Shown: positions 3,720 through 42,969, counted from the stretch's first letter. The stretch is DNA of 64,000 nt from Candidatus Heimdallarchaeum aukensis (GCA_021513695.1 CP084166.1:160001-224000), one strand, 5' to 3'. Notes: generated from the sequence alone by a model not told the origin. Numbers and translations are program-made.

Positions 3720-3764
3720 AAGAGTTGGAATAAATGTTCTATTATAAATTTTCTTAATTTCAAA

Positions 3765-4046
3765 TTAAAGAACTTTATTTATTAGAGAAGATATTTTTTC
3801 AACTACTTCTTGTGCTTCCTCTTCTTCTACTCTATAAATTAGGATCTTTCCAGATGGAAATAAAGAAACTTTTTTTCCTTTTTTTGTTTCTAAAATGTAA
3901 ACAACTTTTGTCTCTCTTAGTATCTTGAAATACTCATCTTCAACAAGAATAGATTTTATTTTTTCTAAATTTATTGTTGTTTGCTCATCTGGTAAAGCTT
4001 CAAATCCTGTTTGTTTTTTGCACTTTTGAATGACAGAGTACTTCAT
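3765..4046 (-). CDS. hypothetical small protein (93 aa)
   Basis: Intact ORF with a coding-like composition; no family recognised. Confidence 0.3.
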   Translation of the reverse strand: MKYSVIQKCKKQTGFEALPDEQTTINLEKIKSILVEDEYFKILRETKVVYILETKKGKKVSLFPSGKILIYRVEEEEAQEVVEKISSLINKVL

Positions 4047-4156
4047 TTAGATGTCGTTTTTTACTATATTTTTATGCTTTTCTTTTTTATTTCTTATCTA
4101 CACTTTTGTTTTTGAAGTTTGGTAAAAGTTATTAATTTATAAAAATAAAGATTGTT

Positions 4157-10174: not shown

Positions 10175-10301
10175 TAGATTTACTTATTTTTCTTTATTTT
10201 TAGACTTTATCTTTATTGAAATTTTTTTTGATTAAATTTACTATAAAATTAACAAAGGAAAACAATAGATTAAAATATTTAAAAAATTAAAATATACTGA
10301 T

Positions 10302-11417
10302 ATGGTTAGTATTAAAAAAGTTCTCAAGCAACTAGAAGATTCTGATCCTATAGTTCGAAGAGATGCAATACTTACTCTTGGAGAACTAAAAGACGAAAAA
10401 GGGGTTGATCCTTTAATTAAGTGTGTTCAACAAGAAATAAAAGAAAATAGAATCACCGCTATTGTTGCACTTTCAGATATTGGAGATCATAGGGCTATTG
10501 AAATATTAATCTACTGTTTAATGGATGATGATGAAGAAATAAGACTTGCTGCTGCTCGAGCTTTAGGACGATTTACTTCTCCTCAAGCTATCACTACTTT
10601 ACTTGTTTCATTAAAAAAAGACCCAAGTGTGAGAGTTAAGAGTCGTGCAGCTCTATCTTTAGGGAGTATTGGTTCAGAACTGCCTGTTGAAGAATTACTT
10701 AAAGAATCTAAATTAGAACACCCAACCACTCTTCTTTATTCTATAAATTCTGCTTTGACAATGATAGCAAAGAAAAATGGTTATAGTTCAGTAGATGAAC
10801 TTGTTCAAAAAATAAGGGCTAAAAAGGCAGAAGTAGATGAGAAAACACCAGAGCATAAACAAATTCAGGAGAAAGAAGAGCTCGAATCTTTTCCTCGTTT
10901 ATATGACTACATTAGAAAATATGTAGCTCGAGAACTAGAAGGGGTACAAACAGTATTAAGTATTAACTCAGATGAAAAGACTGCATCAAAGAAAATAGCT
11001 GATATTTTAGCAGAAAAATTCTGGAAATTTGCTGAATGGATCGGAAAAAGAATGGGACATAAATTAACTGAATATCAATCTGATTTGCTCTGGCAGATGA
11101 TATGGGATACATCAAGGCCAATTAGAAATGAAATTTACCAAATGATAAGAGATCATCGCTCAGAATTAGAGGAATTAAATCGATTCCAGAAATGGCTCAA
11201 CAAAATAGAAGAACAAAAAGAAGAAGAAATCGTTAAAGATATTGAAAGAAGCAGACCTAAACCCATTATTCAAACTTCAAATAATGTGAAAAAAGACGAA
11301 GCAGAGACAATTAGAGCTGCAGATTTGGCAAGAAGTATTTCTTCAAATCTTGAAGAAATAATGGGCAAATATTCTAGTTGGAAAACAAGAGAGTTAAAAG
11401 ATGAAGAAGATTATTAA
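10302..11417 (+). CDS. HEAT (PBS-lyase type) repeat protein, copy 1
   Basis: Repeated 'D..VRR.A...LG' HEAT units in the N-terminal third ('DSDPIVRRDAILTLGEL', 'DEEIRLAAARALGRF', 'DPSVRVKSRAALSLGSIG'). Confidence 0.55.
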   Translation: MVSIKKVLKQLEDSDPIVRRDAILTLGELKDEKGVDPLIKCVQQEIKENRITAIVALSDIGDHRAIEILIYCLMDDDEEIRLAAARALGRFTSPQAITTLLVSLKKDPSVRVKSRAALSLGSIGSELPVEELLKESKLEHPTTLLYSINSALTMIAKKNGYSSVDELVQKIRAKKAEVDEKTPEHKQIQEKEELESFPRLYDYIRKYVARELEGVQTVLSINSDEKTASKKIADILAEKFWKFAEWIGKRMGHKLTEYQSDLLWQMIWDTSRPIRNEIYQMIRDHRSELEELNRFQKWLNKIEEQKEEEIVKDIERSRPKPIIQTSNNVKKDEAETIRAADLARSISSNLEEIMGKYSSWKTRELKDEEDY

Positions 11418-12628: not shown

Positions 12629-13524
12629 AAATCGATGATTTTTAATTCTGTATTTTCTATAATCTTCTTTGAAAATTCTAGTATTTTTGGGTACCTTGGC
12701 ATTATTTCATAAGGTAACCTTTTTCTTGCGTCTCCAACACTCATAAAACCTTTTACTTCTAGAAAATGAGCTTCTGATCTTAAAAATAATTCAGCAAAAG
12801 CTTCTGGTTCGACTAAATTGTAGTTTTCATCTACTAAAGTTAATCTTATAACTTTTCTAGTGTTAAGCGAAGGAAGTAATTCAATTGTTTCCATCACTTT
12901 GTTCCATAGATTTGAAAAAGAAGGACGAGCAGTTTTTTTGAAACTTTCTTCAGTAGGGGCAATTAGAGTAACATAGAGTTGAGTAGGAAGAGGGTCAAGT
13001 TTCTTCAACATTTCAGGATTAGTGCCATTAGTTACTAGAAAAGTAGTCATATCACGATTGTGGAACTCTTGAATTAATTCTGGTAACAAAGGATAGAAAG
13101 TTGGTTCTCCACTTAAAGAAATTGCAGCATGTTTTGGATTGTAAGCTTCTTCATATAATCTTGGTTCTACTTTTGGATGATTTTTGAATCCTGCAATTAG
13201 TCTTCTTTGATGTTCTATCATTTGATCAATAATATATTCCGGTTTGTCAACTTTTCCTCTCATTAATTCTTTGTTGTACCATGATGCACTTCTCCAGCAA
13301 AAAACACATTTTAGATTACACCATATTGTTGCAGGAGTACATTGAAGACAACGGTGAGAAGCTATTCCGTAAAATTGTTGTTTATAGCAAAAACCTTCTC
13401 CTTTTAACGCGTGCTTTAACCAGGTGCAAATTTTTACTGCAGAGTGATTACCAGCTATTCTGTACTGTTGTTTTTCTAGTTTGTCTTTCAATTTTGGAGG
13501 AATAATGTTTGTATTTAAACTCAT
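12625..13524 (-). CDS. taw1: Taw1 copy 2, 3'-truncated by the duplication junction (C-terminal ~24 aa replaced by 'F' then stop)
   Basis: Identical to 9283-10174 over its length. The protein ends '...LKIIDF' instead of '...LKIIDSKEDSAVTLIAKEDYNWRKNLGE'. Confidence 0.6.
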   Translation of the reverse strand: MSLNTNIIPPKLKDKLEKQQYRIAGNHSAVKICTWLKHALKGEGFCYKQQFYGIASHRCLQCTPATIWCNLKCVFCWRSASWYNKELMRGKVDKPEYIIDQMIEHQRRLIAGFKNHPKVEPRLYEEAYNPKHAAISLSGEPTFYPLLPELIQEFHNRDMTTFLVTNGTNPEMLKKLDPLPTQLYVTLIAPTEESFKKTARPSFSNLWNKVMETIELLPSLNTRKVIRLTLVDENYNLVEPEAFAELFLRSEAHFLEVKGFMSVGDARKRLPYEIMPRYPKILEFSKKIIENTELKIIDF

Positions 13525-13649
13525 TAGATTTACTTATTTTCTTTATTTTTAGACTTTATCTTTATTGAAATTTTTTTGATTAAATTTACTATAAAATTAA
13601 CAAAGGAAAACAATAGATTAAAATATTTAAAAAATTAAAATATACTGAT

Positions 13650-14765
13650 ATGGTTAGTATTAAAAAAGTTCTCAAGCAACTAGAAGATTCTGATCCTATA
13701 GTTCGAAGAGATGCAATACTTACTCTTGGAGAACTAAAAGACGAAAAAGGGGTTGATCCTTTAATTAAGTGTGTTCAACAAGAAATAAAAGAAAATAGAA
13801 TCACCGCTATTGTTGCACTTTCAGATATTGGAGATCATAGGGCTATTGAAATATTAATCTACTGTTTAATGGATGATGATGAAGAAATAAGACTTGCTGC
13901 TGCTCGAGCTTTAGGACGATTTACTTCTCCTCAAGCTATCACTACTTTACTTGTTTCATTAAAAAAAGACCCAAGTGTGAGAGTTAAGAGTCGTGCAGCT
14001 CTATCTTTAGGGAGTATTGGTTCAGAACTGCCTGTTGAAGAATTACTTAAAGAATCTAAATTAGAACACCCAACCACTCTTCTTTATTCTATAAATTCTG
14101 CTTTGACAATGATAGCAAAGAAAAATGGTTATAGTTCAGTAGATGAACTTGTTCAAAAAATAAGGGCTAAAAAGGCAGAAGTAGATGAGAAAACACCAGA
14201 GCATAAACAAATTCAGGAGAAAGAAGAGCTCGAATCTTTTCCTCGTTTATATGACTACATTAGAAAATATGTAGCTCGAGAACTAGAAGGGGTACAAACA
14301 GTATTAAGTATTAACTCAGATGAAAAGACTGCATCAAAGAAAATAGCTGATATTTTAGCAGAAAAATTCTGGAAATTTGCTGAATGGATCGGAAAAAGAA
14401 TGGGACATAAATTAACTGAATATCAATCTGATTTGCTCTGGCAGATGATATGGGATACATCAAGGCCAATTAGAAATGAAATTTACCAAATGATAAGAGA
14501 TCATCGCTCAGAATTAGAGGAATTAAATCGATTCCAGAAATGGCTCAACAAAATAGAAGAACAAAAAGAAGAAGAAATCGTTAAAGATATTGAAAGAAGC
14601 AGACCTAAACCCATTATTCAAACTTCAAATAATGTGAAAAAAGACGAAGCAGAGACAATTAGAGCTGCAGATTTGGCAAGAAGTATTTCTTCAAATCTTG
14701 AAGAAATAATGGGCAAATATTCTAGTTGGAAAACAAGAGAGTTAAAAGATGAAGAAGATTATTAA
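13650..14765 (+). CDS. HEAT repeat protein, copy 2 (identical to 10302-11417)
   Basis: The 371-aa translation is identical to copy 1. Confidence 0.55.
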   Translation: MVSIKKVLKQLEDSDPIVRRDAILTLGELKDEKGVDPLIKCVQQEIKENRITAIVALSDIGDHRAIEILIYCLMDDDEEIRLAAARALGRFTSPQAITTLLVSLKKDPSVRVKSRAALSLGSIGSELPVEELLKESKLEHPTTLLYSINSALTMIAKKNGYSSVDELVQKIRAKKAEVDEKTPEHKQIQEKEELESFPRLYDYIRKYVARELEGVQTVLSINSDEKTASKKIADILAEKFWKFAEWIGKRMGHKLTEYQSDLLWQMIWDTSRPIRNEIYQMIRDHRSELEELNRFQKWLNKIEEQKEEEIVKDIERSRPKPIIQTSNNVKKDEAETIRAADLARSISSNLEEIMGKYSSWKTRELKDEEDY

Positions 14766-15169: not shown

Positions 15170-17161
15170 TTATTCAAACCAATACATAGATGTTTTTTCG
15201 AAACATTCTTTTGTTAAATTTTGTGAAAGCTTAAAATAATTAGTAACTTTTTTATCTATCCTTTTTCTGAAAATCACTGCTTGATTAAAATCTCTATCTG
15301 ATTTTATCCAGTTTTTTGTAATTTCTTTCATTGTTACCCAGATATCAGAGGAAGGAAAAGGGATTGGTATCTCTCTAAAAAGGTTTGAAGTTATGTCTCT
15401 TACAATAAAACTTTCTACTATAAATTGAACAAATGAGGAGGAAAGATAACCAAACAACCCATAAAGGTCTATTTGTTCATCAGGAATTATGATGTCAAAA
15501 ATGTCGTTTACGTAATAGCCTTCTAGGTCCAAACCAATAAAATACTTCTTTCCTCTATTTCTACGGACTATTTTTGGTTTTTCAAATATTTGATGATCTC
15601 CTGGTGCTCCTAATACTTTTCTGTCATAAATTATTTTTTCTTTTCCTGGAAAAACTTCAAAGTTTATGACACCTTCTTTGTAATTATTTGAAAAGATATT
15701 GTGTCTTACTATTTCTACAGATTTAATTTCATTTGAATATTTCTTTTTTTTAATATACTTCTCTTTGTATCTCTTTGTTATCGTTAATCCTCGTCTAATA
15801 AAAGAATGTTCTTTTAATTTAGGGTAATTATTCAGGATAGTGCTGATTTCCTTTTGACTTTCAGAACTAAAATTTGAAAAAAGAAAAAGAGGAGGGAAAA
15901 TGAAGCTATAGTCTATTTTGTGTTCATGATTATCTTTTCTTTTATGAAATTTAATGTAATTACTTTCGTTTTTTAAATCCATTGATAACAAAAAGAATTC
16001 ATTGGAAACGTCTTTAAAGGAATAATCTAAATCTGTGTAAATTTCTACATCATATCTATTATCTTTGAGGTGTTTTCTCCATTTCTTGCCATAAGTATCA
16101 GTTATGATACCTGAAGGTAATATTAATCCTACTTTCTCTTTGGATAAACTTTCTGCAATGATCAAAAAAGGTAGAGCAAAATTATATTTTCCAAAGATTC
16201 TATTTTTATAAGGTTCTCTCTTTAAGAATTCTTTATATCTATTATTTATTTTTTTATATTCTATCCACGGTGGATTTCCAATAACAAAATCAAAAAATTT
16301 TTTCTGAAGACTTAAACTTTCATCAAAAAATATTTCAGGCAAATCAACAAAAAAGCTAAATTTGGATAGAGAAGGATATTTCTTCGATATTTCATCTCTT
16401 TTTGTTAAACATTCTTTTATATCTTGAAAAGAAATTTCTTTTTTACCAAATATCACTTCTCTTCTTTTTTCACGAAGTATCGCTAAAAGTTTCAAAAAAG
16501 TTGTATTTTTTCTTTCTGACATTTGCTTTATTATTCTTTCATCATAACCAAGAATGCTATCTCCGTATTTTGAGATTAAAGGAAGTAATTTTCTTTTTCT
16601 ATTATCTTGTAACATGAAAAAGAGTTTGAAAACTTGAAATTCATAAATAAATGGATCAACTTCAACTGAATATGGCATAATCTCTTGTTTTTCAAAAGCT
16701 GGGTAGAGAAAATCTCCTATTCCTGAAGAAATATCGATAACTGTTTTAGTTTTTTTAGAATTGTTACTCAAAATATCTAATAAATCATATACCTTTTTAA
16801 CAAGAATCCTATTAGTAAAATATTGACCTGTTAATCTCGTTTTATCTTGAATAAGTGATAAAATATTAACTTCATTTATTGTCTTGATTATATTTTTGAT
16901 TTGTTCAAAAACCCAAACTGGTAACTTTTTTTCTAGAACTCTGAGTTTTTCTAACGATAGAAGTATTTGCTTATCATCTTGATTTAGATTAACCAGATTT
17001 ATTAACGAAGTTTTTTGTTGATTTTGTTCAGATGAAAAGGATGAAGAATTGTAAATAAAGTAAAACTTTACTATCATCGATTTTAATTCATTAACTGAAA
17101 CTTTGTACCTACTAGCCTTTTTCTGAATTCTACTATGTAGATTTTCCTCTTTTATTTCCAT
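15170..17161 (-). CDS. gamma-class N6-adenine DNA methyltransferase with a large C-terminal target-recognition region (no nuclease domain seen)
   Basis: Motif X 'GQYFTNRILV'; motif I 'VIDISSGIGDFL'; motif IV 'FVIGNPPWIEY' (NPPW). The order X-I-IV indicates gamma class; ~360 aa follow motif IV. Confidence 0.75.
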   Translation of the reverse strand: MEIKEENLHSRIQKKASRYKVSVNELKSMIVKFYFIYNSSSFSSEQNQQKTSLINLVNLNQDDKQILLSLEKLRVLEKKLPVWVFEQIKNIIKTINEVNILSLIQDKTRLTGQYFTNRILVKKVYDLLDILSNNSKKTKTVIDISSGIGDFLYPAFEKQEIMPYSVEVDPFIYEFQVFKLFFMLQDNRKRKLLPLISKYGDSILGYDERIIKQMSERKNTTFLKLLAILREKRREVIFGKKEISFQDIKECLTKRDEISKKYPSLSKFSFFVDLPEIFFDESLSLQKKFFDFVIGNPPWIEYKKINNRYKEFLKREPYKNRIFGKYNFALPFLIIAESLSKEKVGLILPSGIITDTYGKKWRKHLKDNRYDVEIYTDLDYSFKDVSNEFFLLSMDLKNESNYIKFHKRKDNHEHKIDYSFIFPPLFLFSNFSSESQKEISTILNNYPKLKEHSFIRRGLTITKRYKEKYIKKKKYSNEIKSVEIVRHNIFSNNYKEGVINFEVFPGKEKIIYDRKVLGAPGDHQIFEKPKIVRRNRGKKYFIGLDLEGYYVNDIFDIIIPDEQIDLYGLFGYLSSSFVQFIVESFIVRDITSNLFREIPIPFPSSDIWVTMKEITKNWIKSDRDFNQAVIFRKRIDKKVTNYFKLSQNLTKECFEKTSMYWFE

Positions 17162-17243: not shown

Positions 17244-19307
17244 ATGTCTCATATATTGAAGCAAAATGTAAAGATACCCAAAGAAATACTCCCATTCTAT
17301 AAATTATTTAATGATTATGAGAAAGAACAATTTCAAAAATTGTCATCTTTAAACCAAATGTCTAATTTAAATGAAATAGGTACATTATTGTTAGATATCT
17401 TTAATAAAGAAATTGAACACACTTCATATTTTATGCTTGCTCTTGGCAGAATATTATATCATACTTCAGATATGTTAAATCTTGAAAATATCTATAAAGA
17501 AACCGATTCTGCTGAAATAGGGTTATGGTACGCTTTCTTGAGAATTATTAGTTCAGACGATGTACGAAAGGAAGAAATTCTATTAGATCAACTGAAAGAA
17601 AAACTAAATTATTCCTTATTGCACCTTCTTTGGACTATTGTTGAGCTTAATTTTTATGTATATTCAGGAAATCAATTTAATTTTAGAGAAACTAAAGATA
17701 TTATAATTAATCGTTTTTTAGTTGAAGATATCGAAAATAGAGAAAAACATAAAGTGATTTTCAAGCTTTTTTATTCATATATTTTAATTATAGAAATAAA
17801 TTTGAATTTTCTACAGAATCACATTTCATATGCTAAAGACCTACTTATCCATGCTTCTGATATTATAGTTACTTTAGAAGATAGGATTTTAGAGTCGATG
17901 CAACTTAGATTATCTGCATTAATTGAGTTAAGAAAAAACAACTTTTCAACAGCTCAACATCTATTTTTACGTTCTCTTGCTCTCGCAGATATGTTAAAAG
18001 AAATAAGATTTGCAATACAAGTTAATTCAGAAATTGGAGACCTATATCTACAGATGGGCCATGTTAAAGATGCAAAATTGTTTTACGATAAATCACTAGA
18101 GCTTTTAAAAAAGCATGTACCTTATGATTCTTCATTGCAAGGCATTCTACTTTCTAAGATTGCTGATTACTATTTTGTGAATGAAAAGTTTCAAAAGTCT
18201 CTAGATTTGCTTGATGAAGCTCTTTCATTCTTTAAAGTAGATAATAATTTTTCATTTCAGATCAAACTCAAATACATTGAATATCTTTTAAATTTGAAAA
18301 AAGTTAATAAAGCAGAATCTTTGTTGGTTTCAAGTTTTCAAAAGAAAGACAATTATCTTTATTTGCAGAATCAGAGTTTTTGCCTGTATTTAAGAGGATT
18401 TATTGAATTTCTTAAGAAGAATTTTGGTAAAGCCCAGTCTTTCCTCTATGAGGCAATAGGGATTGCAGATAGAACAGGAGATGAATGGACCAGTTCAAAA
18501 TCTTTAGTTCTTCTTTTAATTTTGCTTCTTCTAAAGTATAACTTAGCTTCAAAAGTAGACGATATAGTAGAAGCAGACAAGTGTGTAGATGATATAATTA
18601 CATTTTTAGAAGAAAAAGCGAAGTTTAAAGAACTTGCTCAGATATATCTAATTCGAGCTAAGATAAGAAAAATACTTCTCGACTTTGAGACTTCACTTTT
18701 TTTACTGAAAACAGGAGAAAATATAGCTAGACAGTATTATCCTGAACTTATTACTAAATATGAAGAAAATATTGATGAGATTTCTAGACTCTTAAATTTT
18801 GAAAACATTGCAGAGACAGAAACACCCTCCATAGATTTCAAGGAAGATATTGACACAATTTTTCAAATTCTTATCAGACAGACTAAAAAACTTGGTTCTC
18901 CAATAGAAAGTATTACAATAGCCGTACTTATTTTTCATTCAAGCGGTATACCAGTTCGGACTTATCGTTCTGAAGAGCTCTATATTAGTGATGATATGAT
19001 CTTTGGTGGTTTTGTGTCAGCAATAAGACATCTGCTTGATGAATTGTTCTATTCCCAAGAATCAAAGTCTTTAAGTGTTGATCATGGACAGTACAAGCTT
19101 CTAATTGAGTTTTACAAGAATTTATTTTCTATTGTTATTCTTACTGTTCGAGATAGCTTCTTGTTACGCAGAAAGATGCATCAATTAGTTAGTTTTGTAG
19201 CTTCAAAGGATCTGTTCAAAGAGAAATATTTTGGTAAAATTGATGAACTTGCTTTGAGAGACATTGATTCATTTGTTGAGAAGTTGTTTAAAGTCAAAAA
19301 GAATTAG
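17244..19307 (+). CDS. TPR-like helical repeat protein with a C-terminal Roadblock/LC7-like domain (paralogue A)
   Basis: N-terminal amphipathic helical repeats. The C-terminal ~130 aa share motifs with the next gene: 'SGIPVRTY', 'MIFGGFVSAIRHLLDELF', 'FSIVILTVRDSFLLRRKMHQLV'. Confidence 0.45.
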   Translation: MSHILKQNVKIPKEILPFYKLFNDYEKEQFQKLSSLNQMSNLNEIGTLLLDIFNKEIEHTSYFMLALGRILYHTSDMLNLENIYKETDSAEIGLWYAFLRIISSDDVRKEEILLDQLKEKLNYSLLHLLWTIVELNFYVYSGNQFNFRETKDIIINRFLVEDIENREKHKVIFKLFYSYILIIEINLNFLQNHISYAKDLLIHASDIIVTLEDRILESMQLRLSALIELRKNNFSTAQHLFLRSLALADMLKEIRFAIQVNSEIGDLYLQMGHVKDAKLFYDKSLELLKKHVPYDSSLQGILLSKIADYYFVNEKFQKSLDLLDEALSFFKVDNNFSFQIKLKYIEYLLNLKKVNKAESLLVSSFQKKDNYLYLQNQSFCLYLRGFIEFLKKNFGKAQSFLYEAIGIADRTGDEWTSSKSLVLLLILLLLKYNLASKVDDIVEADKCVDDIITFLEEKAKFKELAQIYLIRAKIRKILLDFETSLFLLKTGENIARQYYPELITKYEENIDEISRLLNFENIAETETPSIDFKEDIDTIFQILIRQTKKLGSPIESITIAVLIFHSSGIPVRTYRSEELYISDDMIFGGFVSAIRHLLDELFYSQESKSLSVDHGQYKLLIEFYKNLFSIVILTVRDSFLLRRKMHQLVSFVASKDLFKEKYFGKIDELALRDIDSFVEKLFKVKKN

Positions 19308-19389: not shown

Positions 19390-21474
19390 ATGTCAGTAGT
19401 ATACAGTTTCCCTAGGGAATATAGTCATTATATCCCTCTTTTCACTAGAGAAGAACAAGATTTGATTAACAACTTTTCATCAAAAGTTAATAAAGATACT
19501 TCAATGGGAATCTTGAAAGATATCCTTTTAGATATTTTAGATAATCTTTCTTCCCCTTCTCTCTATTTCTTATACTCACTAGGTAAAGTTTTATTCATTT
19601 CTAGTAATTATAATCTACTTGAAGAACTCAATAAGAAATATAAAAGTGAGAGTTTAGAGCTGTGGTGGGGAAATGCTCTAATAAGGCGAACTGAGAATGA
19701 TAAAGTAATTAATCTCGCTTTGAAAATACTCAACAAGAATCCTGAAGAAAAAATAATTAGATTACATTGTTATGCCCTTTTAGCTAATGCATATGCAAAT
19801 ATGGAAAGTGAAAATCAATATAGACATTATATGCAAGAACTCTATCATGAGTCAATTATCTTTCATAGAGATTTAGATAAAGAAAAAATTGTAATAAATG
19901 ATATCCTTCTTTTTGCACATGCTATTGACATTTGGAAAGAGAGAATATCTGCACCTCTTTTAAAACTTGAAAACAAAATTGATGTAGCTTTTCAAATTGC
20001 AAAAGAACTAGGAGATCGTTATCACCTTGGAAGGTTGTACAACATAAGAGGAGTAATTTACAGATATGTAGGAAGAATCTCTGATTCATTTGAATTTATA
20101 AATAAGGCTATAAATTATTATAAAGCAGTTGGAGCTAGGAGAGGAGTAGCAGCAGCAAAAGCAAATCTTGCAACAATTTATACAATTAAAAATGAACTAG
20201 ATAAAGCCGAGAAATTACTAAAAGAGTCTCTCTCAATTTTTTTGGAAGTAGGTGATTACAAAAATCAATCCTTAATTCACTCTTCTTTAGGTGAAATTGC
20301 TATTGCTAAAGGAGATTATCACTCTGCTTTAGAATTGTATGAAGAATCTGTAAGTATATTGGAGCAAATAAACGCACACGAACTACAAGTTTATTGCTCT
20401 TTAGGCGAATTATATTATTTCTTAGGAAATAAAGAAAAAATGAAAATAATAATGAAATTCCTGCAAGAGACAGACAAAAAGAAAGAAGGATTCGTCTATG
20501 GATATTATAATTTGTTTAAAGCTCTTTTAGAAATTGATAACATGAATTATGGTAAAGCAAATGAATACTTGGAAAAAGCTTTGTCTATAAGTGATACAAG
20601 AGGAACAGGATTTTTCTCTGCAAAAATACTTCTTCAACTGTCATTGATCAACATAAAGCAATATGATTCTTTTCAAGAAAAGGAGTATTTAGAAAAAGCA
20701 AAACAGTACATAAATGATTTAGAACCATTTTATGAAGAGTTGAATAAAACAATTGAACATGTAATAATTCTATTGGTTCTTTCAAAAATATATGCAGTAA
20801 TGGAAGAATATACGAAGTCTTTTAACATTTTACAAAAAGCAAAAGATCGTCTTAATTTGTCAAAGAAAGAAAGAAAAAAGGATAAATATTACCACTTAAT
20901 AGAAAATAGAATTAAAGAACTTGAAGAAATCTTTTCAAAAGCCAAAACCGAAACATCATTCCAAAATGAAACTTTTCAATATGAAATTAAAGAAATGGAA
21001 AGTATAAGCATTAGACAAATATCAGAATATGAAAAAGAATTAAGAACTTCAATATTGGCACTTTTAATAGTACATCCTTCAGGAATACCTTTAATGAATT
21101 ATACGCTCAAGAGGTCTAGTCAATTTAGAGATGAACTAATGTTTGGAGGTTTTATTGTAGCTGTAAAAGACATGATAGAAGAGTTATTCTCTAATCCAAT
21201 GCAGAGTAAAGTAATGGTCATTAGCTATGGTAATAATAAGATAATAATGGAGCACAGTCCAAAGAGAAATTTTAGTGTAATTATTTTATCATCAAAGGAT
21301 AGTTTTATTCTACGAAGAAAAATTCATCGATTAACTCAAAATCTACAAGATATAGAGCTCCCGCAACAGTATATTGGAGAATTGACCCCTAAAACAGCTT
21401 CAAGAATAAATGAAGAAGTAAAAAATGTTTTTGGAGAAAACTTAATGCTATATGAAGGTGCTGTTCATATTTAG
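19390..21474 (+). CDS. TPR repeat protein with a C-terminal Roadblock/LC7-like domain (paralogue B)
   Basis: TPR-like units ('YHLGRLYNIRGVIY', 'AAAKANLATIYTIKNELDKAEKLLKESLSIF', 'SLIHSSLGEIAIAKGDYHSALELYEESV'). C-terminus: 'SGIPLMNY', 'LMFGGFIVAVKDMIEELF', 'FSVIILSSKDSFILRRKIHRLT'. Confidence 0.5.
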   Translation: MSVVYSFPREYSHYIPLFTREEQDLINNFSSKVNKDTSMGILKDILLDILDNLSSPSLYFLYSLGKVLFISSNYNLLEELNKKYKSESLELWWGNALIRRTENDKVINLALKILNKNPEEKIIRLHCYALLANAYANMESENQYRHYMQELYHESIIFHRDLDKEKIVINDILLFAHAIDIWKERISAPLLKLENKIDVAFQIAKELGDRYHLGRLYNIRGVIYRYVGRISDSFEFINKAINYYKAVGARRGVAAAKANLATIYTIKNELDKAEKLLKESLSIFLEVGDYKNQSLIHSSLGEIAIAKGDYHSALELYEESVSILEQINAHELQVYCSLGELYYFLGNKEKMKIIMKFLQETDKKKEGFVYGYYNLFKALLEIDNMNYGKANEYLEKALSISDTRGTGFFSAKILLQLSLINIKQYDSFQEKEYLEKAKQYINDLEPFYEELNKTIEHVIILLVLSKIYAVMEEYTKSFNILQKAKDRLNLSKKERKKDKYYHLIENRIKELEEIFSKAKTETSFQNETFQYEIKEMESISIRQISEYEKELRTSILALLIVHPSGIPLMNYTLKRSSQFRDELMFGGFIVAVKDMIEELFSNPMQSKVMVISYGNNKIIMEHSPKRNFSVIILSSKDSFILRRKIHRLTQNLQDIELPQQYIGELTPKTASRINEEVKNVFGENLMLYEGAVHI

Positions 21475-34374: not shown

Positions 34375-35571
34375 TTGTTTAGCATGCTTAAGAAAGAGAC
34401 TTATAAAGATATGATTACTGCAAATCAAGCTGTTGCATTAGCTGTTGTTCGTGCAAAACCCAAAGTTATTGCTGCTTATCCTATATCTCCTCAAACTACA
34501 ATTGTTGAATATCTCGCTGATTATTGTGCTTCAGGTGATCTTGATGCAGAATATGTTAGAGTAGAGTCTGAGCATAGTGCAATGACTGTTGTAGCTGCTG
34601 CACAAGGAACAGGTGTTAGAACTTTTACAACCACTGCATCTCAAGGTTTAGCTTATATGCATGAAGTAGTGGCTGCTACTGGAGGAATGCGATTACCTGT
34701 TGTAATGTTTGTAGCTAATCGCACACTCATGAGTCCTGGGGGTATTTGGCCTGAATATTCAGATACCATGCCTGAAAGAGACACAGCTTGGCTTCAAGTT
34801 TATGTTGAAGATAATCAAGAAGTTTTTGATATGATTATTCAAGCTTATAAAATAGCTGAACATAAAGATGTGTTATTACCAATAATGGTCTGTGGAGATG
34901 GATATATTCTTACTCATACATCAGACACTGTTGAAATTTTAGGAGAGAAAGAAGTAGATGAATTTCTTCCACAATATAAATCAGAGCATGCATATTTGGA
35001 TATTGAAAGACCTTTGGCACAAGGAATAATTGTTCCACCTGCATACCATATGGAAGCAAAATATCAAATGCATATGGCTATGAGAAAAGCAAAAAAAGTA
35101 ATCCAAGAAGTTAATGAGGAATTTTCAAAGAAATTCGGTCGAGATTACGGGGGGTTAATAGATACTTATAAGCTAGAAGACGCAGAAATAGCATTAACAG
35201 TTGTAGGTTCAACTACAGGAACAGCAAGAACAGTAGTTGACGAATTAAGAAAAAAAGGGGTAAAAATAGGTCTTCTTAAAATTAGATTCTTTAGACCTTT
35301 TCCATTTGAAGAAATAAGAAAAGCTTTGGAAAATATGAAAGCTATAGGTGTTTTTGATAGAAGCTTATCTTATGGTTCTACAGGACAATTTTTTGGTGAA
35401 GTTAGAAACGCGTTATATGGGTTAAATATTCCTATAGTTAATTTTATTGCAGGATTAGGTGGGAGAGACATTAGAGAAGAAGATATTCGAACAATGATTA
35501 ACAAAATCGATGAACTAAAGGACAAAGAACAACCAGAAGATCCTATAATATTCGTTAATACTCGATTTTGA
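34375..35571 (+). CDS. 2-oxoacid (pyruvate/2-ketoisovalerate):ferredoxin oxidoreductase, alpha subunit
   Basis: 'ITANQAVALAVVRAKPKVIAAYPISPQTTIVEYLAD', the typical PorA/VorA N-terminus; ~395 aa. Confidence 0.8.
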   Translation: MFSMLKKETYKDMITANQAVALAVVRAKPKVIAAYPISPQTTIVEYLADYCASGDLDAEYVRVESEHSAMTVVAAAQGTGVRTFTTTASQGLAYMHEVVAATGGMRLPVVMFVANRTLMSPGGIWPEYSDTMPERDTAWLQVYVEDNQEVFDMIIQAYKIAEHKDVLLPIMVCGDGYILTHTSDTVEILGEKEVDEFLPQYKSEHAYLDIERPLAQGIIVPPAYHMEAKYQMHMAMRKAKKVIQEVNEEFSKKFGRDYGGLIDTYKLEDAEIALTVVGSTTGTARTVVDELRKKGVKIGLLKIRFFRPFPFEEIRKALENMKAIGVFDRSLSYGSTGQFFGEVRNALYGLNIPIVNFIAGLGGRDIREEDIRTMINKIDELKDKEQPEDPIIFVNTRF

Positions 35572-36928: not shown

Positions 36929-38404
36929 TTAACTTAACGATTTTTTTCTCATTTTCTCTATATATTCTTGACTATAACCAAACAAAATAAACTTTCTAGA
37001 ATTTTCAAAAGTGATTTTCACTGAAATTTCTTGTTCATTATCTAAAAATATTTCAGGTAGTAGCATGTTTGATTTTATATTTTCAATTTTTATTATAGGT
37101 ATAGATTTTAGAACTCTGTCTTTTGTTGTTAATACAAATAAATGTTCATCAACAATTGTCCATTTTGCTACATATTCTTTTTTTACGACCTCATTTATTG
37201 AATTTATATAGATATCATCGAAGAAAACTTGTTCTGTTTTTATTATTGCTTCTATTATGAAACTGGTCAGTAGGTAGAGAACTATAAACCAATAAACATA
37301 ATTTTCATCCCAAAAATGAATAACAAATAAAACCATTGAAACAATTAAGAACGCAAAATTACCCAGAAATTGAAGAAAATATTTGTGTGCCTTTTTTAAT
37401 CCCTCTTTTACCTTCGTTTTCTGTTTATAAGCAGTAAAATGCTTAAAATTTAGATATTTTTCATAATCGTTTTCATAATCTTTAAAGAAAAAAGGTTGAA
37501 AGATTTTTTTCCATTTAACTACTCTTGCAGGAATTTTGTAAAACATTTCTTCTTCATTACCAAATGATATTTTAGATGAAATCCAATTTTTAGGTAGATC
37601 TTCTTTTTCTTTTACTCTTAAGAAAACATTTTTTATTTCTCTTTTCATTTTTACTTTTTCTCTTAATTTTACTATTTTAAAATATGAAAAAATTAGTATA
37701 ATTGAGAAAAAAGTACTAAGTACAGTAAGTGTGAAAGTTGTATAATATGCAGTTTTCAGACTTATATTATTGTTAAAAGCAATATAGAGCGAGGGTAATG
37801 TTAGGGCCAACATAAACAAAATCCCTATTGCTTGAATATTGTTTTCTAATCTAAAATTCTGATTTCTAGTTCTCCTAATAGATTTCTTTAACAAATAAGA
37901 TAGTAATTTAAAGGCTTTGTAGTATGCTAAAAAGAAGAAAGTAGGAAAAAGTACAAACATACATATATACAACCATATTGAAAATATAGAAGGTTGTGTG
38001 TAATCTTCTGTTCTAAGAAATGAGCTGAAAATAAGAAAGCTAAGTAAAGTTGAGAAACCTAAAACAAATATGTTAGGAAAAATAAAAGTCCAAATCGCAA
38101 ATGATTCCATTATTAACTTCCTTGAATCAACGATTTGATTCAAAGGATATAAATCAGAAAGAGGATCTTGAATGCTTTTATCATCTGTTTCATTCTTGAA
38201 ATAGTAGCCCTCAAATATTATTTCTTTCTGATTCTTTGATTTCCAATTAACAAAATCTATTATTAGTTCTCTTTGGTTATTGGAAATATCTTTGGTATGG
38301 ATGTTGTAATCTTCAATTTCTCCTTTTTTTCTAAAATAATCAGTTTTAATCCTGACAGATTTTTTATTTCTTGAAATATATTTTTCTTTATTTGTTACCT
38401 TCAT
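36929..38404 (-). CDS. polytopic membrane protein with a C-terminal PH-like (bPH/YdbT-type) domain
   Basis: ~95-aa soluble N-terminus, then at least six hydrophobic helices, then a C-terminal beta-rich ~80 aa ('LFVLTTKDRVLKSIPIIKIENI...ISVKITFENSRKFILFGYSQEYIEKM'). Starts 4 bp after the helicase stop. Confidence 0.45.
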   Translation of the reverse strand: MKVTNKEKYISRNKKSVRIKTDYFRKKGEIEDYNIHTKDISNNQRELIIDFVNWKSKNQKEIIFEGYYFKNETDDKSIQDPLSDLYPLNQIVDSRKLIMESFAIWTFIFPNIFVLGFSTLLSFLIFSSFLRTEDYTQPSIFSIWLYICMFVLFPTFFFLAYYKAFKLLSYLLKKSIRRTRNQNFRLENNIQAIGILFMLALTLPSLYIAFNNNISLKTAYYTTFTLTVLSTFFSIILIFSYFKIVKLREKVKMKREIKNVFLRVKEKEDLPKNWISSKISFGNEEEMFYKIPARVVKWKKIFQPFFFKDYENDYEKYLNFKHFTAYKQKTKVKEGLKKAHKYFLQFLGNFAFLIVSMVLFVIHFWDENYVYWFIVLYLLTSFIIEAIIKTEQVFFDDIYINSINEVVKKEYVAKWTIVDEHLFVLTTKDRVLKSIPIIKIENIKSNMLLPEIFLDNEQEISVKITFENSRKFILFGYSQEYIEKMRKKSLS

Positions 38405-38408
38405 CTTT

Positions 38409-41393
38409 CTACTTCCATATTATTTTTTTATTGACTTTGAAGATTTTATTCTGTTTTTCTCTTTCCTGAGTTATATTTTCTTTTACAATTTCTCCAAGAG
38501 CAACTATCCTGTTCCAAATAACAACTAATTGACTAATTTCATCTGTTTTTAAAAATGAAAGACCTATAACTATTAATTGTTTTAATGCTTTTTCGTTTAT
38601 TTTTTGATTGTTTTTAATTATTGTTTCATCTTCTTTTAATTCTTTAATCGAGATTCCAATATTAGCATTTTGAAGCATGAGCATGGAATCTAATACCGTT
38701 TCTACTTTTGGATTGATTCTTGGTAACAATAGTCGAAAATAATTACCTATTCTTTGGCTAAATGTAACATATTTTATTTCTTCACTGATTAAGTTCAATG
38801 CGTCATTTTTCTTCTTCAGGGCTATTTTATACTCATTTAATAAAATTAAACTTTGAAATACATCAGATAGTAATTCTGTGAAAAGTTTCTTTTCAAAATC
38901 AATGTATCCCTTACGGAAAAACCTTTTTTCATTATTCTTATATTTTATAACTCCATAACTATCGTTCACTACAGGAATGATAAAAGTTCTATCTTCAAAT
39001 TTTAAGTCATAAGATAATAATTCAACGTTGTCATATTTTTCTCCAATTTTCCACTGCTCATAAGTTTTTTCTCTTTGCAACGCCTTATTTATCATGATTT
39101 GGTTAAATTTACTGATATCTTTTGCTATCTCACTTATATCTTCAGAGATTGAAGGAAAAATATGTCCTATTCCTTTTTCTATTATTCCATCTTCTGACAA
39201 TCCATAAAAGTGTTCATGTTTTCGTTGTATATTAAAAAAGGTGCTAAGACCGAAAGGTAAACTAGGCTCAATTACAGCTATATCCCATATGTTGCTTATT
39301 TTTTTGTCATCTGTTTCATCTACTCTATATGCTCTTCCTTTAGTTTGAATAACAGTTTGATAAGCAGATACTGAAGTTAAATCAATAAGTGTATTTAGTT
39401 TAACAGAGTCCCACCCTTCTCCTAATATGTTTCTTGGCCCAATCAGACATTTAGTTATCCCCTTCTCAAGTAAATAAGTAAAAAGAAGAGTGTATATTCC
39501 TGTTCTCCAATCAAATCCCTCTCCTATAATTTGGACAATTTTCTCGTTTTCTGTTCTTTTTATTGACAATTTAAAATCAAATTTGAAATTCTCTTTCCAT
39601 TTTTCACTTTCTTTTAGTATTTGATTAGCTATGTCTCTATCTGTAAGTATTGATGAAGAAGAAATGGAAACTGGATCTAACTGGTTGGTTTTAGTATTTG
39701 AAATAAGCTTTTCTAAGATACTTAACGACAGATTTTCTGTAGTAAAATCATAAATTATTGCTGAACGTAATTTATCCTTTAAATATGAGAATTCATACTC
39801 TAGAATCTCAACAATAGCATTTATTTTTGATTTACTTGAATTAAGAAAACTAAAAGTTACTTCTCTCTCTTTCATTAAATTATCTACATTCTCTAGTTTC
39901 TCAAAAAATCGACCTAATTCGTTATAATAATTTAAAGCTTTTTTAGAATTGAATTTCTGTTTTCTAAGATAATTCCAATAATAGGCGTGAAGAATAATAA
40001 ATAATTCATTTAATGTAAATTTTTCTTGATCAATTGCTTCTTGATTTTCAAAAATCAGATAAATTTTGTTTACTAAATCATCATTCTTGTATCGTTTTAT
40101 TATGTTTAGATGATTATTTTCATATTCTTCTTTAAGAAATTCAATAGGGTCTTTTAGATTTTTAGATTTTAATGAAGAAAAGAGCTTTCTCAAAGGTTTG
40201 AATTTTTTTTCTATTTCCTTTCTTTCTTCCTCTTGAGGATAGACAAAGTATAACAAATCTTGATAAGGGGCTATGTTTTTTTGTTTTACCGCTGCTGGAG
40301 TAGGTATTTCGATATCAACAGAACCAAAAAGTAATTCGTATATTCCTACTTCTTCATCCTCGACATTCACATCAGTTGGAGGAGTTGCAGTTAAACCCAA
40401 AATGAATGGGATGTTAAATTCTTCAATAAGATAGTTTACAATATATGCCCAAATTGATGTAAGATGATGACACTCATCTAAGATTATTAGACCTATTCCT
40501 TTGTTTTTTAGGGTGTCAATTATCTCTAATGTGTTTTTGTGTAGAATGTCTTTAATCTTTATATCTGAAAAATTAAACTCTCCTTTTATTATCTTATGCC
40601 TTATTTTGTTGATATATTCATTTATTTTTGCTTTATACTCTTCATAATTACTTTTTTTTAAAGATTCAATAAATTCTTTATTTTCATTTTTTTCTTTTAA
40701 CCACATTTTTTCAGCAAAATGCTGTAACATCTCTTCTTCTTGAGAATAAACAGAAAAACGTTGGTAGGTCATTACTGTAATTGGAGCTCTTGATTTAGGG
40801 TCTGTATTTCCAATCATCGTGTTAATGATATTGTTTTCTTTGTCAAGAAACAATTTAATTTTATCTATCCATTGGTCCTGAGTAGAAAAATTTGGTGTTA
40901 GCACTAGAGTATTTTTTGCTATTTGTTTTGCTATTTCAAGACCTACAATAGTTTTTCCTGAACCAGGAGGAGAAACAACATAAAACTTCCTTTCTACTGT
41001 GCTAATTTTTTGTTCAAATTTTTCTAAAATAAGTTTTTGAGATTGCCAAAATTCTCCTCGAAAATACATGTTTGTTAATAAAGAAGGATCAATTTGTCCA
41101 TCTCTGTCTAAATCAAATCTGTATTCACGGAAAGAATTTATTGAAATTTTGATAAAATTATTTATTTTCTCTACTTTTTTACAGTGGGGACAATATTCAT
41201 TTATTTTATACCATTGCTCTAAATGTTCAGAATGAAAAAGACTTCTACAATAAGGGCATAGATAGACTATATCTTCTTTATCAAAAGGTGTAAAGCATAT
41301 CTCACATTTAACAATTTCAGCTCTGCAATTTTCACAGAAATTCCAATCTAACTCAATTTTTGAGTTACAGTTTGTACAACTGTAATGATTCAT
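38409..41393 (-). CDS. SF2 (DEAH/ResIII-like) helicase with an N-terminal double Zn ribbon and a ~300-aa uncharacterised C-terminal extension
   Basis: Four Cys pairs within the first 75 aa ('CTNC..CENC..CEIC..CPYC..CPHC'); motif I 'SPPGSGKT'; motif II 'ILDECHH'; motif III 'LGLTATPP'; motif VI 'QTKGRAYR'. Confidence 0.75.
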   Translation of the reverse strand: MNHYSCTNCNSKIELDWNFCENCRAEIVKCEICFTPFDKEDIVYLCPYCRSLFHSEHLEQWYKINEYCPHCKKVEKINNFIKISINSFREYRFDLDRDGQIDPSLLTNMYFRGEFWQSQKLILEKFEQKISTVERKFYVVSPPGSGKTIVGLEIAKQIAKNTLVLTPNFSTQDQWIDKIKLFLDKENNIINTMIGNTDPKSRAPITVMTYQRFSVYSQEEEMLQHFAEKMWLKEKNENKEFIESLKKSNYEEYKAKINEYINKIRHKIIKGEFNFSDIKIKDILHKNTLEIIDTLKNKGIGLIILDECHHLTSIWAYIVNYLIEEFNIPFILGLTATPPTDVNVEDEEVGIYELLFGSVDIEIPTPAAVKQKNIAPYQDLLYFVYPQEEERKEIEKKFKPLRKLFSSLKSKNLKDPIEFLKEEYENNHLNIIKRYKNDDLVNKIYLIFENQEAIDQEKFTLNELFIILHAYYWNYLRKQKFNSKKALNYYNELGRFFEKLENVDNLMKEREVTFSFLNSSKSKINAIVEILEYEFSYLKDKLRSAIIYDFTTENLSLSILEKLISNTKTNQLDPVSISSSSILTDRDIANQILKESEKWKENFKFDFKLSIKRTENEKIVQIIGEGFDWRTGIYTLLFTYLLEKGITKCLIGPRNILGEGWDSVKLNTLIDLTSVSAYQTVIQTKGRAYRVDETDDKKISNIWDIAVIEPSLPFGLSTFFNIQRKHEHFYGLSEDGIIEKGIGHIFPSISEDISEIAKDISKFNQIMINKALQREKTYEQWKIGEKYDNVELLSYDLKFEDRTFIIPVVNDSYGVIKYKNNEKRFFRKGYIDFEKKLFTELLSDVFQSLILLNEYKIALKKKNDALNLISEEIKYVTFSQRIGNYFRLLLPRINPKVETVLDSMLMLQNANIGISIKELKEDETIIKNNQKINEKALKQLIVIGLSFLKTDEISQLVVIWNRIVALGEIVKENITQEREKQNKIFKVNKKIIWK

Positions 41394-41609
41394 CAGATTC
41401 TATTTCCTAAACATCTATATAATATCTTTCTTTCAAAAAGTGTAAAAATAGAAAGAGTTGAGAATCATAATATGCAATTATCATCATAATTCAGACAGGG
41501 GTAACTTAATCATTTTCTCAACAAAAAAAAGATTTCTTCTTGTTTTTTTAATTTTCCCTTTTGTAAAACTTCTTGAACAGTAAATTTTTGATAAAATATT
41601 GAAAATTTA

Positions 41610-41972
41610 TTATCCGTGCCCTAGCAAGTCATTGGCTACCATGTTAATTACTTCTTGTGCTTCTTTTGATAGTAGGTGTCTTTTAGGAGTAATAGCTGCT
41701 TTATAGATATCATTTAGAATTTTAGCTCTATTCTTATTCACTACATCGAGCAAAGTCATATCATCAATATTATCTGCTTGCTCTTTATATAAAGCAATAA
41801 TGTCGTCTTCAAGTTCTTTTGTTGCTTCTTTTATTGCTTTAATAATTCTTTTTTCTGAAGCTGTAATCTTGCCTGATTTTGAACAGAAGTCAATTACTGA
41901 TTGAACCATATTCTTCAAAATCAATTTAACTTCTTCAATTTCTTTTTCAGTGTCTACTGATTCTGCCAACAA
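41610..41972 (-). CDS. hypothetical helical protein (120 aa) upstream of the helicase
   Basis: ORF only. Confidence 0.3.
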   Translation of the reverse strand: MLAESVDTEKEIEEVKLILKNMVQSVIDFCSKSGKITASEKRIIKAIKEATKELEDDIIALYKEQADNIDDMTLLDVVNKNRAKILNDIYKAAITPKRHLLSKEAQEVINMVANDLLGHG

Positions 41973-42045: not shown

Positions 42046-42969
42046 CTAATCATTTTTTATGCTTTCGTCTAGGTTGGTAGCTTTTTCTAATCCTCTATAT
42101 ATCTTCCATCTTCTATCGATATATTCTTTAAGTTTTTCAACTTGTTCAGGGGTTATATTTTTGAATCGTCCTTGTTTTGACAAAAATTCTTCTAATCCTG
42201 TAAATTTAGGTTTTCTGTTAATTTTCACTCTTCCATTTTCATATTCAATTAGTAGCCAATAACCTGATTCAACAGCTTCTTTTGCTAATTGGGGACCTAA
42301 ATGAGTTGGTACTTTCCATCCTGGAGTGCAGATAGACAAAACTTCTATATATCTAAATCCCTTCATCTTCTTTGCTTTTTCTATTTTATTGATAAAATCT
42401 TGAATGTAAGCTGTTGAAGCAGTAGCTACATAGGTAGCTTCATGTGCAATAAGTATCCTTGGAATATCTTTTGGAAACCATTCATTTCCTTTCGATTTTC
42501 CTTTAACAGGAGTTGTTGTAGACCACGAACCATAAGGAGTCAATCCTGAAGCTTGAATTCCTGTATTCTCATATGCTTGATTGTTGTAACAAATATACAA
42601 TATATTTTCATCTCTTTGAGCTGCTCCAGATAGAGCTTGTAGACCTATATCTGCCGTACCTCCATCTCCAGCCATCCCCAAGACTACTATATCTTCCTTG
42701 TTTTGAGCTTTTAAAGCTCTTGAGATCCCAGTAACAGTTGAAGCGGTATTCGCAAACTGTAGATGGAAATAAGGAACATCCCAGTTAAGATTAGGAAAAG
42801 TTCCTCCAAAAACACTTAGACAACAAGGGGGAACACTCACAATTGTTTTTTTCCCTAAAATACGCATTACGTTAATAGCGATATTTGACGCCATACAACC
42901 TGCACAAGCACTGTCTCCGCTTACAAACTCTGCTCTATCTGGAAGATCTTTTAATCTCATAGCTTTCAC
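42046..42969 (-). CDS. 2-oxoacid:ferredoxin oxidoreductase, beta (TPP-binding) subunit
   Basis: 'GMAGDGGTADIG' TPP-binding GDGx motif; Cys residues for the proximal [4Fe-4S] ('CAGC','PPCC'); 307 aa. Confidence 0.75.
   Translation of the reverse strand: MKAMRLKDLPDRAEFVSGDSACAGCMASNIAINVMRILGKKTIVSVPPCCLSVFGGTFPNLNWDVPYFHLQFANTASTVTGISRALKAQNKEDIVVLGMAGDGGTADIGLQALSGAAQRDENILYICYNNQAYENTGIQASGLTPYGSWSTTTPVKGKSKGNEWFPKDIPRILIAHEATYVATASTAYIQDFINKIEKAKKMKGFRYIEVLSICTPGWKVPTHLGPQLAKEAVESGYWLLIEYENGRVKINRKPKFTGLEEFLSKQGRFKNITPEQVEKLKEYIDRRWKIYRGLEKATNLDESIKND

Follow-up and report, generated by a model that had tools for sequence, protein, structure and literature searches.

A helicase with a RING-H2-like finger and a predicted six-helix membrane protein form a conserved gene pair in Heimdallarchaeaceae

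The gene pair

Candidatus Heimdallarchaeum aukensis encodes a 994-amino-acid helicase and, immediately downstream of it, a 491-amino-acid membrane protein (hereafter the partner) within the stretch of 64,000 nucleotides analysed here and referred to as the window (GCA_021513695.1, CP084166.1:160001-224000). The helicase consists of an N-terminal Zn ribbon, a RING-H2-like finger, a superfamily 2 (SF2) motor and a family-specific C-terminal region, and the partner is predicted to cross the membrane six times. The stop codon TAG of the helicase is followed by the four nucleotides AAAG and then by the ATG of the partner, a junction that had been correctly described in the original prediction, which was made by a model from the DNA alone. 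The three open reading frames (ORFs) on which that prediction was based, the third being a 120-amino-acid ORF upstream of the helicase, are all present (Table 1).

The partner adjoins the helicase in five out of five lineages in which the downstream DNA is visible, which are the window, Candidatus H. endolithica (L001), L003, L009/L011 and L018. The spacer measures 4 to 5 nucleotides in four of the five (4 in L001 and L003, 5 in L009 and L011), and in H. endolithica the whole region is syntenic with the window. The partner of L003 is cut by the contig end and is collinear with its homologue (hhalign E 3.4e-5). A frameshift in the A-rich variable insert divides the helicase of L009 (6937..9995) into two ORFs and probably reflects either an error of sequencing or a strain-specific pseudogene; the helicase of the close relative L011 (32..3103) is intact and a partner homologue lies downstream of it. 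L018 stems from a metagenome-assembled genome of Heimdallarchaeaceae, in which the partner homologue (hhalign 98.9%, E 1.6e-17) again follows the helicase and a TnpB/Cas12f-like gene of the IS200/605 type (2660..4051, minus strand) sits exactly between the two. The neighbouring genes vary by lineage and comprise ABC transporters with a peroxiredoxin, a Pilin_N protein with an MFS transporter, or POR genes. Helicase and partner have remained together in all five lineages despite these differing neighbours, in support of the two-gene module of the original prediction, and they form a genuine gene pair that is conserved as a unit. The further claim that the pair is unlike any named system also holds.

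The distribution of the partner is narrow. Large protein libraries (5.8 billion clusters, and 1.84 billion representatives scanned exhaustively with HMMER) contain as its only homologues the H. endolithica protein (P0122, 63%), a fragment (P0123) and a distant relative (P0124, E 7e-9), and a third large protein search with a profile of four partner sequences gave nothing further. Every partner relative with visible context lies downstream of a RING-helicase, and the two taxon-named loci as well as the named database homologues all belong to the Heimdallarchaeaceae. A genome scan with the single helicase sequence found no relatives, a rescan with an alignment recovered H. endolithica and L011 only, and a metagenome scan returned one fragment from the same species together with an unrelated protein carrying a Zn ribbon and a RING finger (L017).

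The N-terminal zinc modules

The N-terminus of the helicase had been described as a double Zn ribbon with four CxxC pairs. It actually contains five CxxC pairs and one HxxH, which are arranged as one Zn ribbon followed by a RING-H2-like finger, and this finger, overlooked in the original prediction, is the most informative feature of the protein. It has the pattern C30-x2-C33-x12-C46-x2-C49-x4-H54-x2-H57-x10-C68-x2-C71, accompanied by I32, W61, P69 and K72. The Pfam model zf-RING_2, for which the cutoff is 27.3 bits, scores 33.1 bits on the isolated N-terminus, 27.2 bits on the full protein and 28.0 bits on P0003. A profile of six sequences matches 51 solved chains in the PDB, most of which are RING E3 ligases; RNF4 (4.8e-9) and Arkadia (5e-7) are among them, RNF165, EL5, RLIM, AMFR, RNF38, listerin, Rbx2 and synoviolin are also matched, and the weakest matches include an MLL2 finger and RING-like chains of GATOR2.

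The four cysteines of the Zn ribbon and the eight RING ligands are invariant in the RING-helicases compared (four in one alignment, five in another) and in the unrelated L017 protein. I32, W61, P69 and K72 are likewise invariant among the RING-helicases, and K72 is replaced by glutamine in the L017 protein. Three of these residues, I32, W61 and K72, are the equivalents of I30, W58 and R69 in srfp, the RING E3 of the archaeon C. subterraneum (Caldiarchaeum), which are required for ubiquitylation in a reconstituted E1/E2/RING-E3 cascade (PMC5654768). Ubiquitin homologues have also been reported in Heimdallarchaeota (PMC5654768). Judged by its sequence, the helicase finger possesses all the features of an E2-binding RING E3.

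The L017 protein itself, a product of 344 amino acids on metagenome contig Ga0315279_10003637 (7389..8423), carries the same cassette of Zn ribbon and RING (C-x2-C-x4-H-x2-H...W...CPxC), followed by a second RING, and the adjacent 382-amino-acid protein (6089..7237) has a RING at its end. The cassette would thus seem to behave as a mobile domain module among related archaeal genomes.

The helicase motor and the C-terminal region

The complete set of SF2 core motifs proposed earlier is confirmed, since GSGKT (residues 144-148), DECH (306-309), TAT (335-337) and QxxGRxxR (683-690, with Q683, G686, R687 and R690) are invariant in an alignment of 42 homologues. Pfam recognises ResIII (1.3e-20) as well as DEAD. 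The AlphaFold2 (AF2) model of the helicase, which was built from the family alignment, has a mean predicted local distance difference test score (pLDDT) of 80 and a predicted template modelling score (pTM) of 0.76. Within it, lobe 2 is mostly above 90 and lobe 1 mostly at about 80-94, with ten-residue blocks down to 55-66; the insertion between the two lobes differs in length among homologues. The best matches to the motor by both sequence and fold are XPB, XPBII and Rad25, and its nearest solved relatives are XPB, Hef, UvsW and RadD. Its fold neighbours suggest that the helicase is most likely a translocase on double-stranded nucleic acid driven by an XPB/UvsW/Hef-like SF2 ATPase. Orthology to XPB was considered and rejected, as the NCBIfam equivalog NF045503 reaches 59.8 bits where its cutoff is 610 and TIGR00603 reaches 31.5 where it is 328.7, and the XPB equivalog models align to only about 110 residues of the helicase.

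The C-terminus of about 300 residues, which had been regarded as unassigned, belongs to the conserved sequence of a large helicase family, and the homology reaches the last residues. It is laid out as a helical bundle, a long beta-hairpin sheet (791-837), an alpha/beta domain and a conserved tail ending in IIWK, and R887, Y912, P946 and W960 are conserved across the family. Residues 785-994 match no Pfam entry (even at E<=10) and no PDB profile beyond noise, and no match in the fold search extends past the helicase core. The original prediction had also noted the absence of a nuclease motif, and searches of Pfam, of PDB profiles and of folds likewise reveal none.

The helicase family and a predicted transmembrane hairpin

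Residues ~105-994 of the helicase are homologous, at 26-35% identity, to hundreds of proteins of 900-1050 amino acids that are everywhere annotated only as DEAD/DEAH helicases. Their hosts are Clostridia (Acetivibrio), Planctomycetota (Blastopirellula, Gimesia), Lentisphaerota, Cyanobacteria, candidate division WWE3 and the archaeal Poseidoniales. Representatives such as P0018 (Acetivibrio straminisolvens), P0087 (Blastopirellula) and P0107 (Poseidoniales) share the motifs and the C-terminal domain of the window helicase. The bacterial and Poseidoniales relatives have no Zn ribbon, no RING and no downstream membrane partner. Their genes stand alone on the chromosome, beside rho-rpmE in Acetivibrio, the suf operon in Poseidoniales and tad and redoxin genes in Blastopirellula, and the family gives two weak partial matches among 72,556 plasmid records and another two among 50,697 phage records. 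Heimdallarchaeum homologues of the helicase are 99% and 82% identical to it, and those of three further Heimdallarchaeaceae lineages 42-52%. On some clostridial contigs a protein of 158-181 amino acids is encoded 28 nucleotides upstream of the helicase homologue (L012 4497..4973, L013 991..1467, L014 443..988); it has no family match and is unrelated to the 120-amino-acid ORF of the window.

Around 30 of the 120 listed homologues, the closest bacterial ones included, contain an insertion of about 60 amino acids at the C-terminal beta-hairpin. It consists of two hydrophobic helices of 18-22 residues with a short turn between them and lysine and arginine on the flanks, and is predicted to form a transmembrane (TM) hairpin. 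Carriers are P0005-P0022, P0028, P0030, P0032, P0038, P0045, P0056 and others, with the hairpin at about residues 740-830 of each; the site corresponds to residues ~800-835 of the window helicase (38890..38995). In a neighbour-joining tree the lineages with the hairpin branch nearest to the Heimdall clade, a placement that is no more than suggestive. These relatives are predicted to be membrane-anchored SF2 helicases, a class of which no account was found in the literature. The hairpin of the bacterial proteins therefore suggests that membrane attachment recurs in the helicase family.

The membrane partner

Hydropathy predicts six TM helices in the partner (at about residues 101-131, 138-165, 190-211, 221-247, 342-366 and 369-391), which agrees with the minimum of six proposed earlier. 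The most conserved part of the protein is the N-terminal motif F24-x-K26-x-G28...S41-x4-E46-x3-D50, in which six positions are invariant in the four lineages aligned, L003 among them. Lysine and arginine residues are distributed as 20, 7, 26 and 15 on one side of the membrane and 0, 1 and 0 on the other, in keeping with the positive-inside rule. Hydropathy and charge bias together predict that both termini lie inside the cell and that the roughly 290 soluble residues are all cytoplasmic. The loops facing outwards measure just 6, 9 and 2 residues and, with all of the soluble mass on the cytoplasmic side, the partner would therefore be an anchor or scaffold and not an external sensor or an obvious pore.

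The partner has no match in Pfam, NCBIfam, PADLOC, PHROG or the PDB. Its N-terminal, loop and C-terminal domains, the last of these taken from three homologues, were also searched in isolation and match no Pfam entry at E<=10, bPH included; the bPH model gives no match to the full-length partner proteins at E<=0.1 either. The PH-like C-terminus that had been proposed is consequently not confirmed, there being no PDB profile match and the AF2 model, made from three sequences, being unusable at a pLDDT of 37. YdbS/YdbT-type bPH proteins do resemble the partner in layout, in that a beta-rich cytoplasmic domain of some 100 residues comes after a TM hairpin, but the partner has four more TM helices, a conserved N-terminal domain and a basic loop of 94 residues. 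It is the fastest-evolving gene of its neighbourhood, with 62.5% identity between the two Heimdallarchaeum species where the helicase has 82% and the core neighbours have 91-97%.

Relation to known systems

XPB/Rad25, the helicase of TFIIH that in archaea occurs as XPB-Bax1, is the nearest neighbour of the motor by motifs I, II, III and VI, by sequence and by fold. The window helicase is twice as long, with a helical insertion of 150 amino acids and a family-specific C-terminal region of 280 amino acids; it has no Bax1 partner, and it carries the Zn ribbon and the RING and has a membrane partner.

The eukaryotic proteins Rad5/HLTF, SHPRH, Rad16 and Uls1 offer the nearest functional analogy in that they likewise unite a RING and an SF2 DNA translocase in a single polypeptide, a design that would link ligation of the ubiquitin type to transactions on DNA. 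They are Snf2-family ATPases in which the RING is inserted between the helicase lobes. In the window helicase the motor is XPB-like, with no match to Pfam SNF2 at E<=0.1 (weak matches occur in P0003 and P0018), the RING lies at the N-terminus behind a Zn ribbon, and a membrane partner is present. Because the ATPase family and the position of the RING both differ, the likeness is most likely due to convergence and not to common ancestry.

The archaeal E3 srfp shares with the helicase a RING-H2-type finger of nearly identical spacing, with isoleucine after the first cysteine, tryptophan after ligand 6 and lysine or arginine after the last cysteine (PMC5654768). However, srfp is a small protein that stands alone and whose gene shares an operon with ubiquitin, E1 and E2, as in the ubiquitin operons of Caldiarchaeum and Asgard archaea (PMC5654768), whereas the helicase RING is fused to a motor of 900 amino acids, has Cys-x2 instead of His-x1 at ligand 4 and is not accompanied by ubiquitin-system genes in the window.

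Genomic surroundings

The module lies between genes for the two POR subunits, which are convergent on opposite strands and 6.5 kb apart in both Heimdallarchaeum species (Table 1). The flanking genes named in the original prediction (POR-alpha, a histone-like gene, SfsA and POR-beta) are all found. Its view of the region as an accessory insertion does not stand, given that the region is syntenic in H. endolithica, contains no mobile-element genes and has a G+C content only slightly lower (0.25-0.28) than the approximately 30% of the window. A DDE transposase gene lies beside POR-alpha in H. endolithica (L001 17512..18435) and is missing from the window.

The 120-amino-acid ORF was considered as a third member of the module and discarded. 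In L003 and L009 the DNA upstream of the module lacks it (the upstream DNA of L011 and L018 is not visible), and in the window it is separated from the helicase by 216 nucleotides that include a run of eight T and a TATA-like box before the helicase ATG. The ORF encodes a helical protein without a family match in Pfam, NCBIfam or PADLOC, JetC appearing at E 0.013 only. Its identity of 97.5% between H. aukensis and H. endolithica is the highest of any gene nearby, above that of POR, Sat/CysC and the tRNA synthetase.

The remainder of the window is of housekeeping character and includes genes for aldehyde:ferredoxin oxidoreductase, AsxRS, PAC2, Sat/CysC, TauE, ABC/FtsX and POR. The sole gene of a defence type is an ORF that resembles a type IIG restriction-modification enzyme, with Eco57I methylase and TaqI_C specificity domains, and it lies 20 kb from the module; two paralogous TPR proteins are encoded after it. 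A 68-amino-acid lysine-rich protein has a weak histone-fold match (E 0.062), which leaves the label of histone-fold gene tentative, and a 192-amino-acid protein contains one C2H2 zinc finger of the eukaryotic type (Pfam 6e-05, below the cutoff). A tandem direct duplication with a period of 3348-3350 nucleotides and 100% identity holds two identical 371-amino-acid HEAT-repeat proteins and parts of a radical-SAM/wyosine-formation gene, and is either a very recent event or an assembly artefact.

Table 1. Features of the helicase-partner locus and of the surrounding window (positions counted from the first nucleotide of the window; res, residues)
Feature	Position	Strand	Basis or remark
994-aa helicase gene	38409..41393	-	ORF; GenBank UJG41006.1, labelled 'DEAD/DEAH box helicase family protein'
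Zn ribbon (res 4-25; C6, C9, C20, C23)	41319..41384	-	Pfam Zn_Ribbon_1 and DZR on isolated N-terminus
RING-H2-like finger (res 28-74)	41172..41312	-	zf-RING_2, PDB profile matches, invariant ligands
RecA-like lobe 1 (res ~115-385)	40239..41051	-	motifs I, II, III
Variable helical insertion between RecA lobes (res ~388-541)	39771..40232	-	AF2 helices 388-541, lower pLDDT
RecA-like lobe 2 (res ~542-712)	39258..39770	-	motif VI QTKGRAYR 683-690
Family-specific C-terminal region (res 713-994)	38412..39257	-	conserved to C-terminus
Spacer, 4 nt	38405..38408	-	AAAG, helicase stop TAG to partner ATG
491-aa six-TM membrane partner gene	36929..38404	-	ORF; GenBank hypothetical protein K9W45_00760
Partner N-terminal cytoplasmic domain (res 1-100), predicted	38105..38404	-	best-conserved motif; 20 Lys+Arg
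TM helices 1-4 (res ~101-247), predicted	37664..38104	-	Kyte-Doolittle 19-aa means 1.96-2.21; helices in low-confidence AF2 model
Basic cytoplasmic loop (res 248-341), predicted	37382..37663	-	26 Lys+Arg against 13 Asp+Glu; no Pfam match
TM hairpin 5-6 (res 342-391), predicted	37232..37381	-	Kyte-Doolittle means 2.29, 2.17; 2-residue connecting loop
Partner C-terminal soluble domain (res 392-491)	36932..37231	-	beta-rich by sequence
120-aa ORF	41610..41972	-	ORF; upstream of helicase
POR alpha-type and beta-type (TPP) subunit genes	34375..35571, 42046..42969	+, -	in L001 8437..9339, 15826..17013
Lys-rich protein, 68 aa	35820..36026	+	weak histone-fold match
C2H2 zinc-finger protein, 192 aa	33112..33690	-	Pfam match below cutoff
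Paralogous TPR proteins	17244..19307, 19390..21474		
Type IIG restriction-modification-like ORF, 663 aa	15170..17161	-	Eco57I methylase and TaqI_C domains
Tandem direct duplication	9280..11417, 12630..14765		
Identical HEAT-repeat proteins, 371 aa	10302..11417, 13650..14765		within the duplication

Possible functions of the pair

The interpretation that is preferred, if tentatively and at somewhat less than an even chance, is that the two genes are an operon specific to Heimdallarchaeaceae for a membrane-tethered, XPB-like DNA translocase with a RING-E3-like finger. It is proposed that the helicase was derived from the large, mostly bacterial family described above and gained the Zn ribbon and the RING-H2-like finger at its N-terminus in the archaeal lineage. 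The six-TM partner would dock the helicase at the cytoplasmic membrane and would thereby supply in trans the attachment that the TM hairpin may provide in cis in the bacterial relatives. The motor would engage DNA, or less likely RNA, at the membrane, and the RING may bring an E2~ubiquitin-like conjugate, or some other protein partner, to the substrate of the motor. It is conceivable, albeit doubtful, that the protein is an archaeal E3 ubiquitin ligase in the full sense, tethered to the membrane and mounted on a DNA-translocase motor, which would make it the prokaryotic counterpart of Rad5/HLTF/SHPRH/Rad16.

Several observations weigh against this interpretation. The helicase family has no characterised member, so that the term DNA translocase is taken from fold neighbours only, and the TnpB-like insertion in L018 means that tight coupling of the two genes is not obligatory. 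The fast divergence of the partner fits either a weakly constrained anchor or a component of an arms race. With regard to the RING, the cross-brace is predicted, the pLDDT of the AF2 model being 35-57 over residues 1-100, a region covered by three to four sequences only. Ligand 4 is a cysteine with x2 spacing where the canonical residue is a histidine with x1, RING-like fingers are sometimes purely structural, and the 64-kb window contains no gene for ubiquitin, E1 or E2.

The absence of ubiquitin-system genes nearby, together with the tolerated TnpB insertion, would also suit an ordinary housekeeping helicase of repair or recombination, in which the zinc modules are structural or DNA-binding (as in RadD or ComFA) and the membrane gene is unrelated operon baggage. 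The family is widespread, vertically inherited and placed in housekeeping contexts, and its nearest solved relatives are repair factors. Such a role is nevertheless unlikely, since the adjacency of the partner in all five lineages despite reshuffled neighbours, and its occurrence nowhere else, is hard to explain without a functional link; the TM hairpin of the bacterial relatives provides an independent connection to the membrane, and the invariant E2-contact residues I32, W61, P69 and K72 exceed what Zn binding needs. The recurrence of membrane association in the family, be it through an internal TM hairpin or a separate six-TM partner, and the translocase type of the motor could instead point to transport or tethering of nucleic acids. 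A motor of this kind, docked at the membrane and akin to ComFA (the Zn-finger DEAD-box ATPase of Gram-positive competence) or to a DNA pump, would act by pulling DNA or RNA at the membrane or across it, or by anchoring the chromosome or extrachromosomal DNA, with the RING as an assembly module only. This is rather improbable, because competence, pilus or secretion genes are not consistently nearby (Pilin_N adjoins the module in L003 only), the partner has very short outer loops and no channel-like features, and homology to ComFA or to systems of the FtsK type is absent.

The original prediction placed the module among candidate defence or DNA-surveillance systems. The helicase would then sense foreign nucleic acid and the membrane protein would act as a membrane-disrupting effector of abortive infection, and the combination of a helicase with a TM protein does resemble the logic of some defence systems. 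The module also has a different neighbourhood in different lineages, and the sole hint of conflict is the divergence of the partner relative to the core genes, which is equally expected of an anchor under low constraint. A helicase beside a TM protein is insufficient for calling a defence system, and PADLOC, genomic context and phyletic pattern all argue against one here, leaving it unsupported and the least probable of the explanations. PADLOC-DB v2 gives a weak and generic typeIV_DinG match to the helicase (5.6e-6, 23 bits) and none to the partner. ZorD and Hna have lower scores than XPB, UvsW, Hef and Snf2, and the resemblance is therefore to a generic SF2 core. In every lineage the module is surrounded by housekeeping genes, with no defence island and no flanking defence genes or mobile elements, and between the two Heimdallarchaeum species it is fully syntenic among POR, Sat/CysC and tRNA-synthetase genes. 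The family as a whole is a stand-alone chromosomal gene in Acetivibrio, Poseidoniales and Blastopirellula and is nearly missing from plasmids and phages. Lastly, hardly any of the partner's mass is extracellular, and no effector domain (nuclease, pore, NADase or other) is detected by Pfam, PDB profile or fold search.

Significance for Heimdallarchaeia

What is new in the pair is that a RING-E3-like finger and an XPB-like SF2 motor, each of a known kind, are combined with a putative membrane anchor. No account of this architecture was found in the literature, RING-helicases of Asgard or Heimdall archaea included, and membrane-bound SF2 helicases have, to our knowledge, rarely been described. 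Irrespective of the RING, the analysis exposes a large helicase family that has hundreds of members and no characterised one. Heimdallarchaeia are the archaeal group nearest to eukaryotes, and a design that joins ligase and motor, which is considered typical of eukaryotic genome maintenance, would occur here among them. If the RING is an active E3, the helicase would be the first archaeal protein, within the literature searched, to join ubiquitin-type ligation to a nucleic-acid motor. Should the bolder interpretation of a membrane-tethered E3 ubiquitin ligase on a DNA-translocase motor be true, ubiquitin-type signalling would be coupled to nucleic-acid transactions at the membrane of these archaea, and the large bacterial family from which the helicase arose would consist of membrane-anchored helicases.

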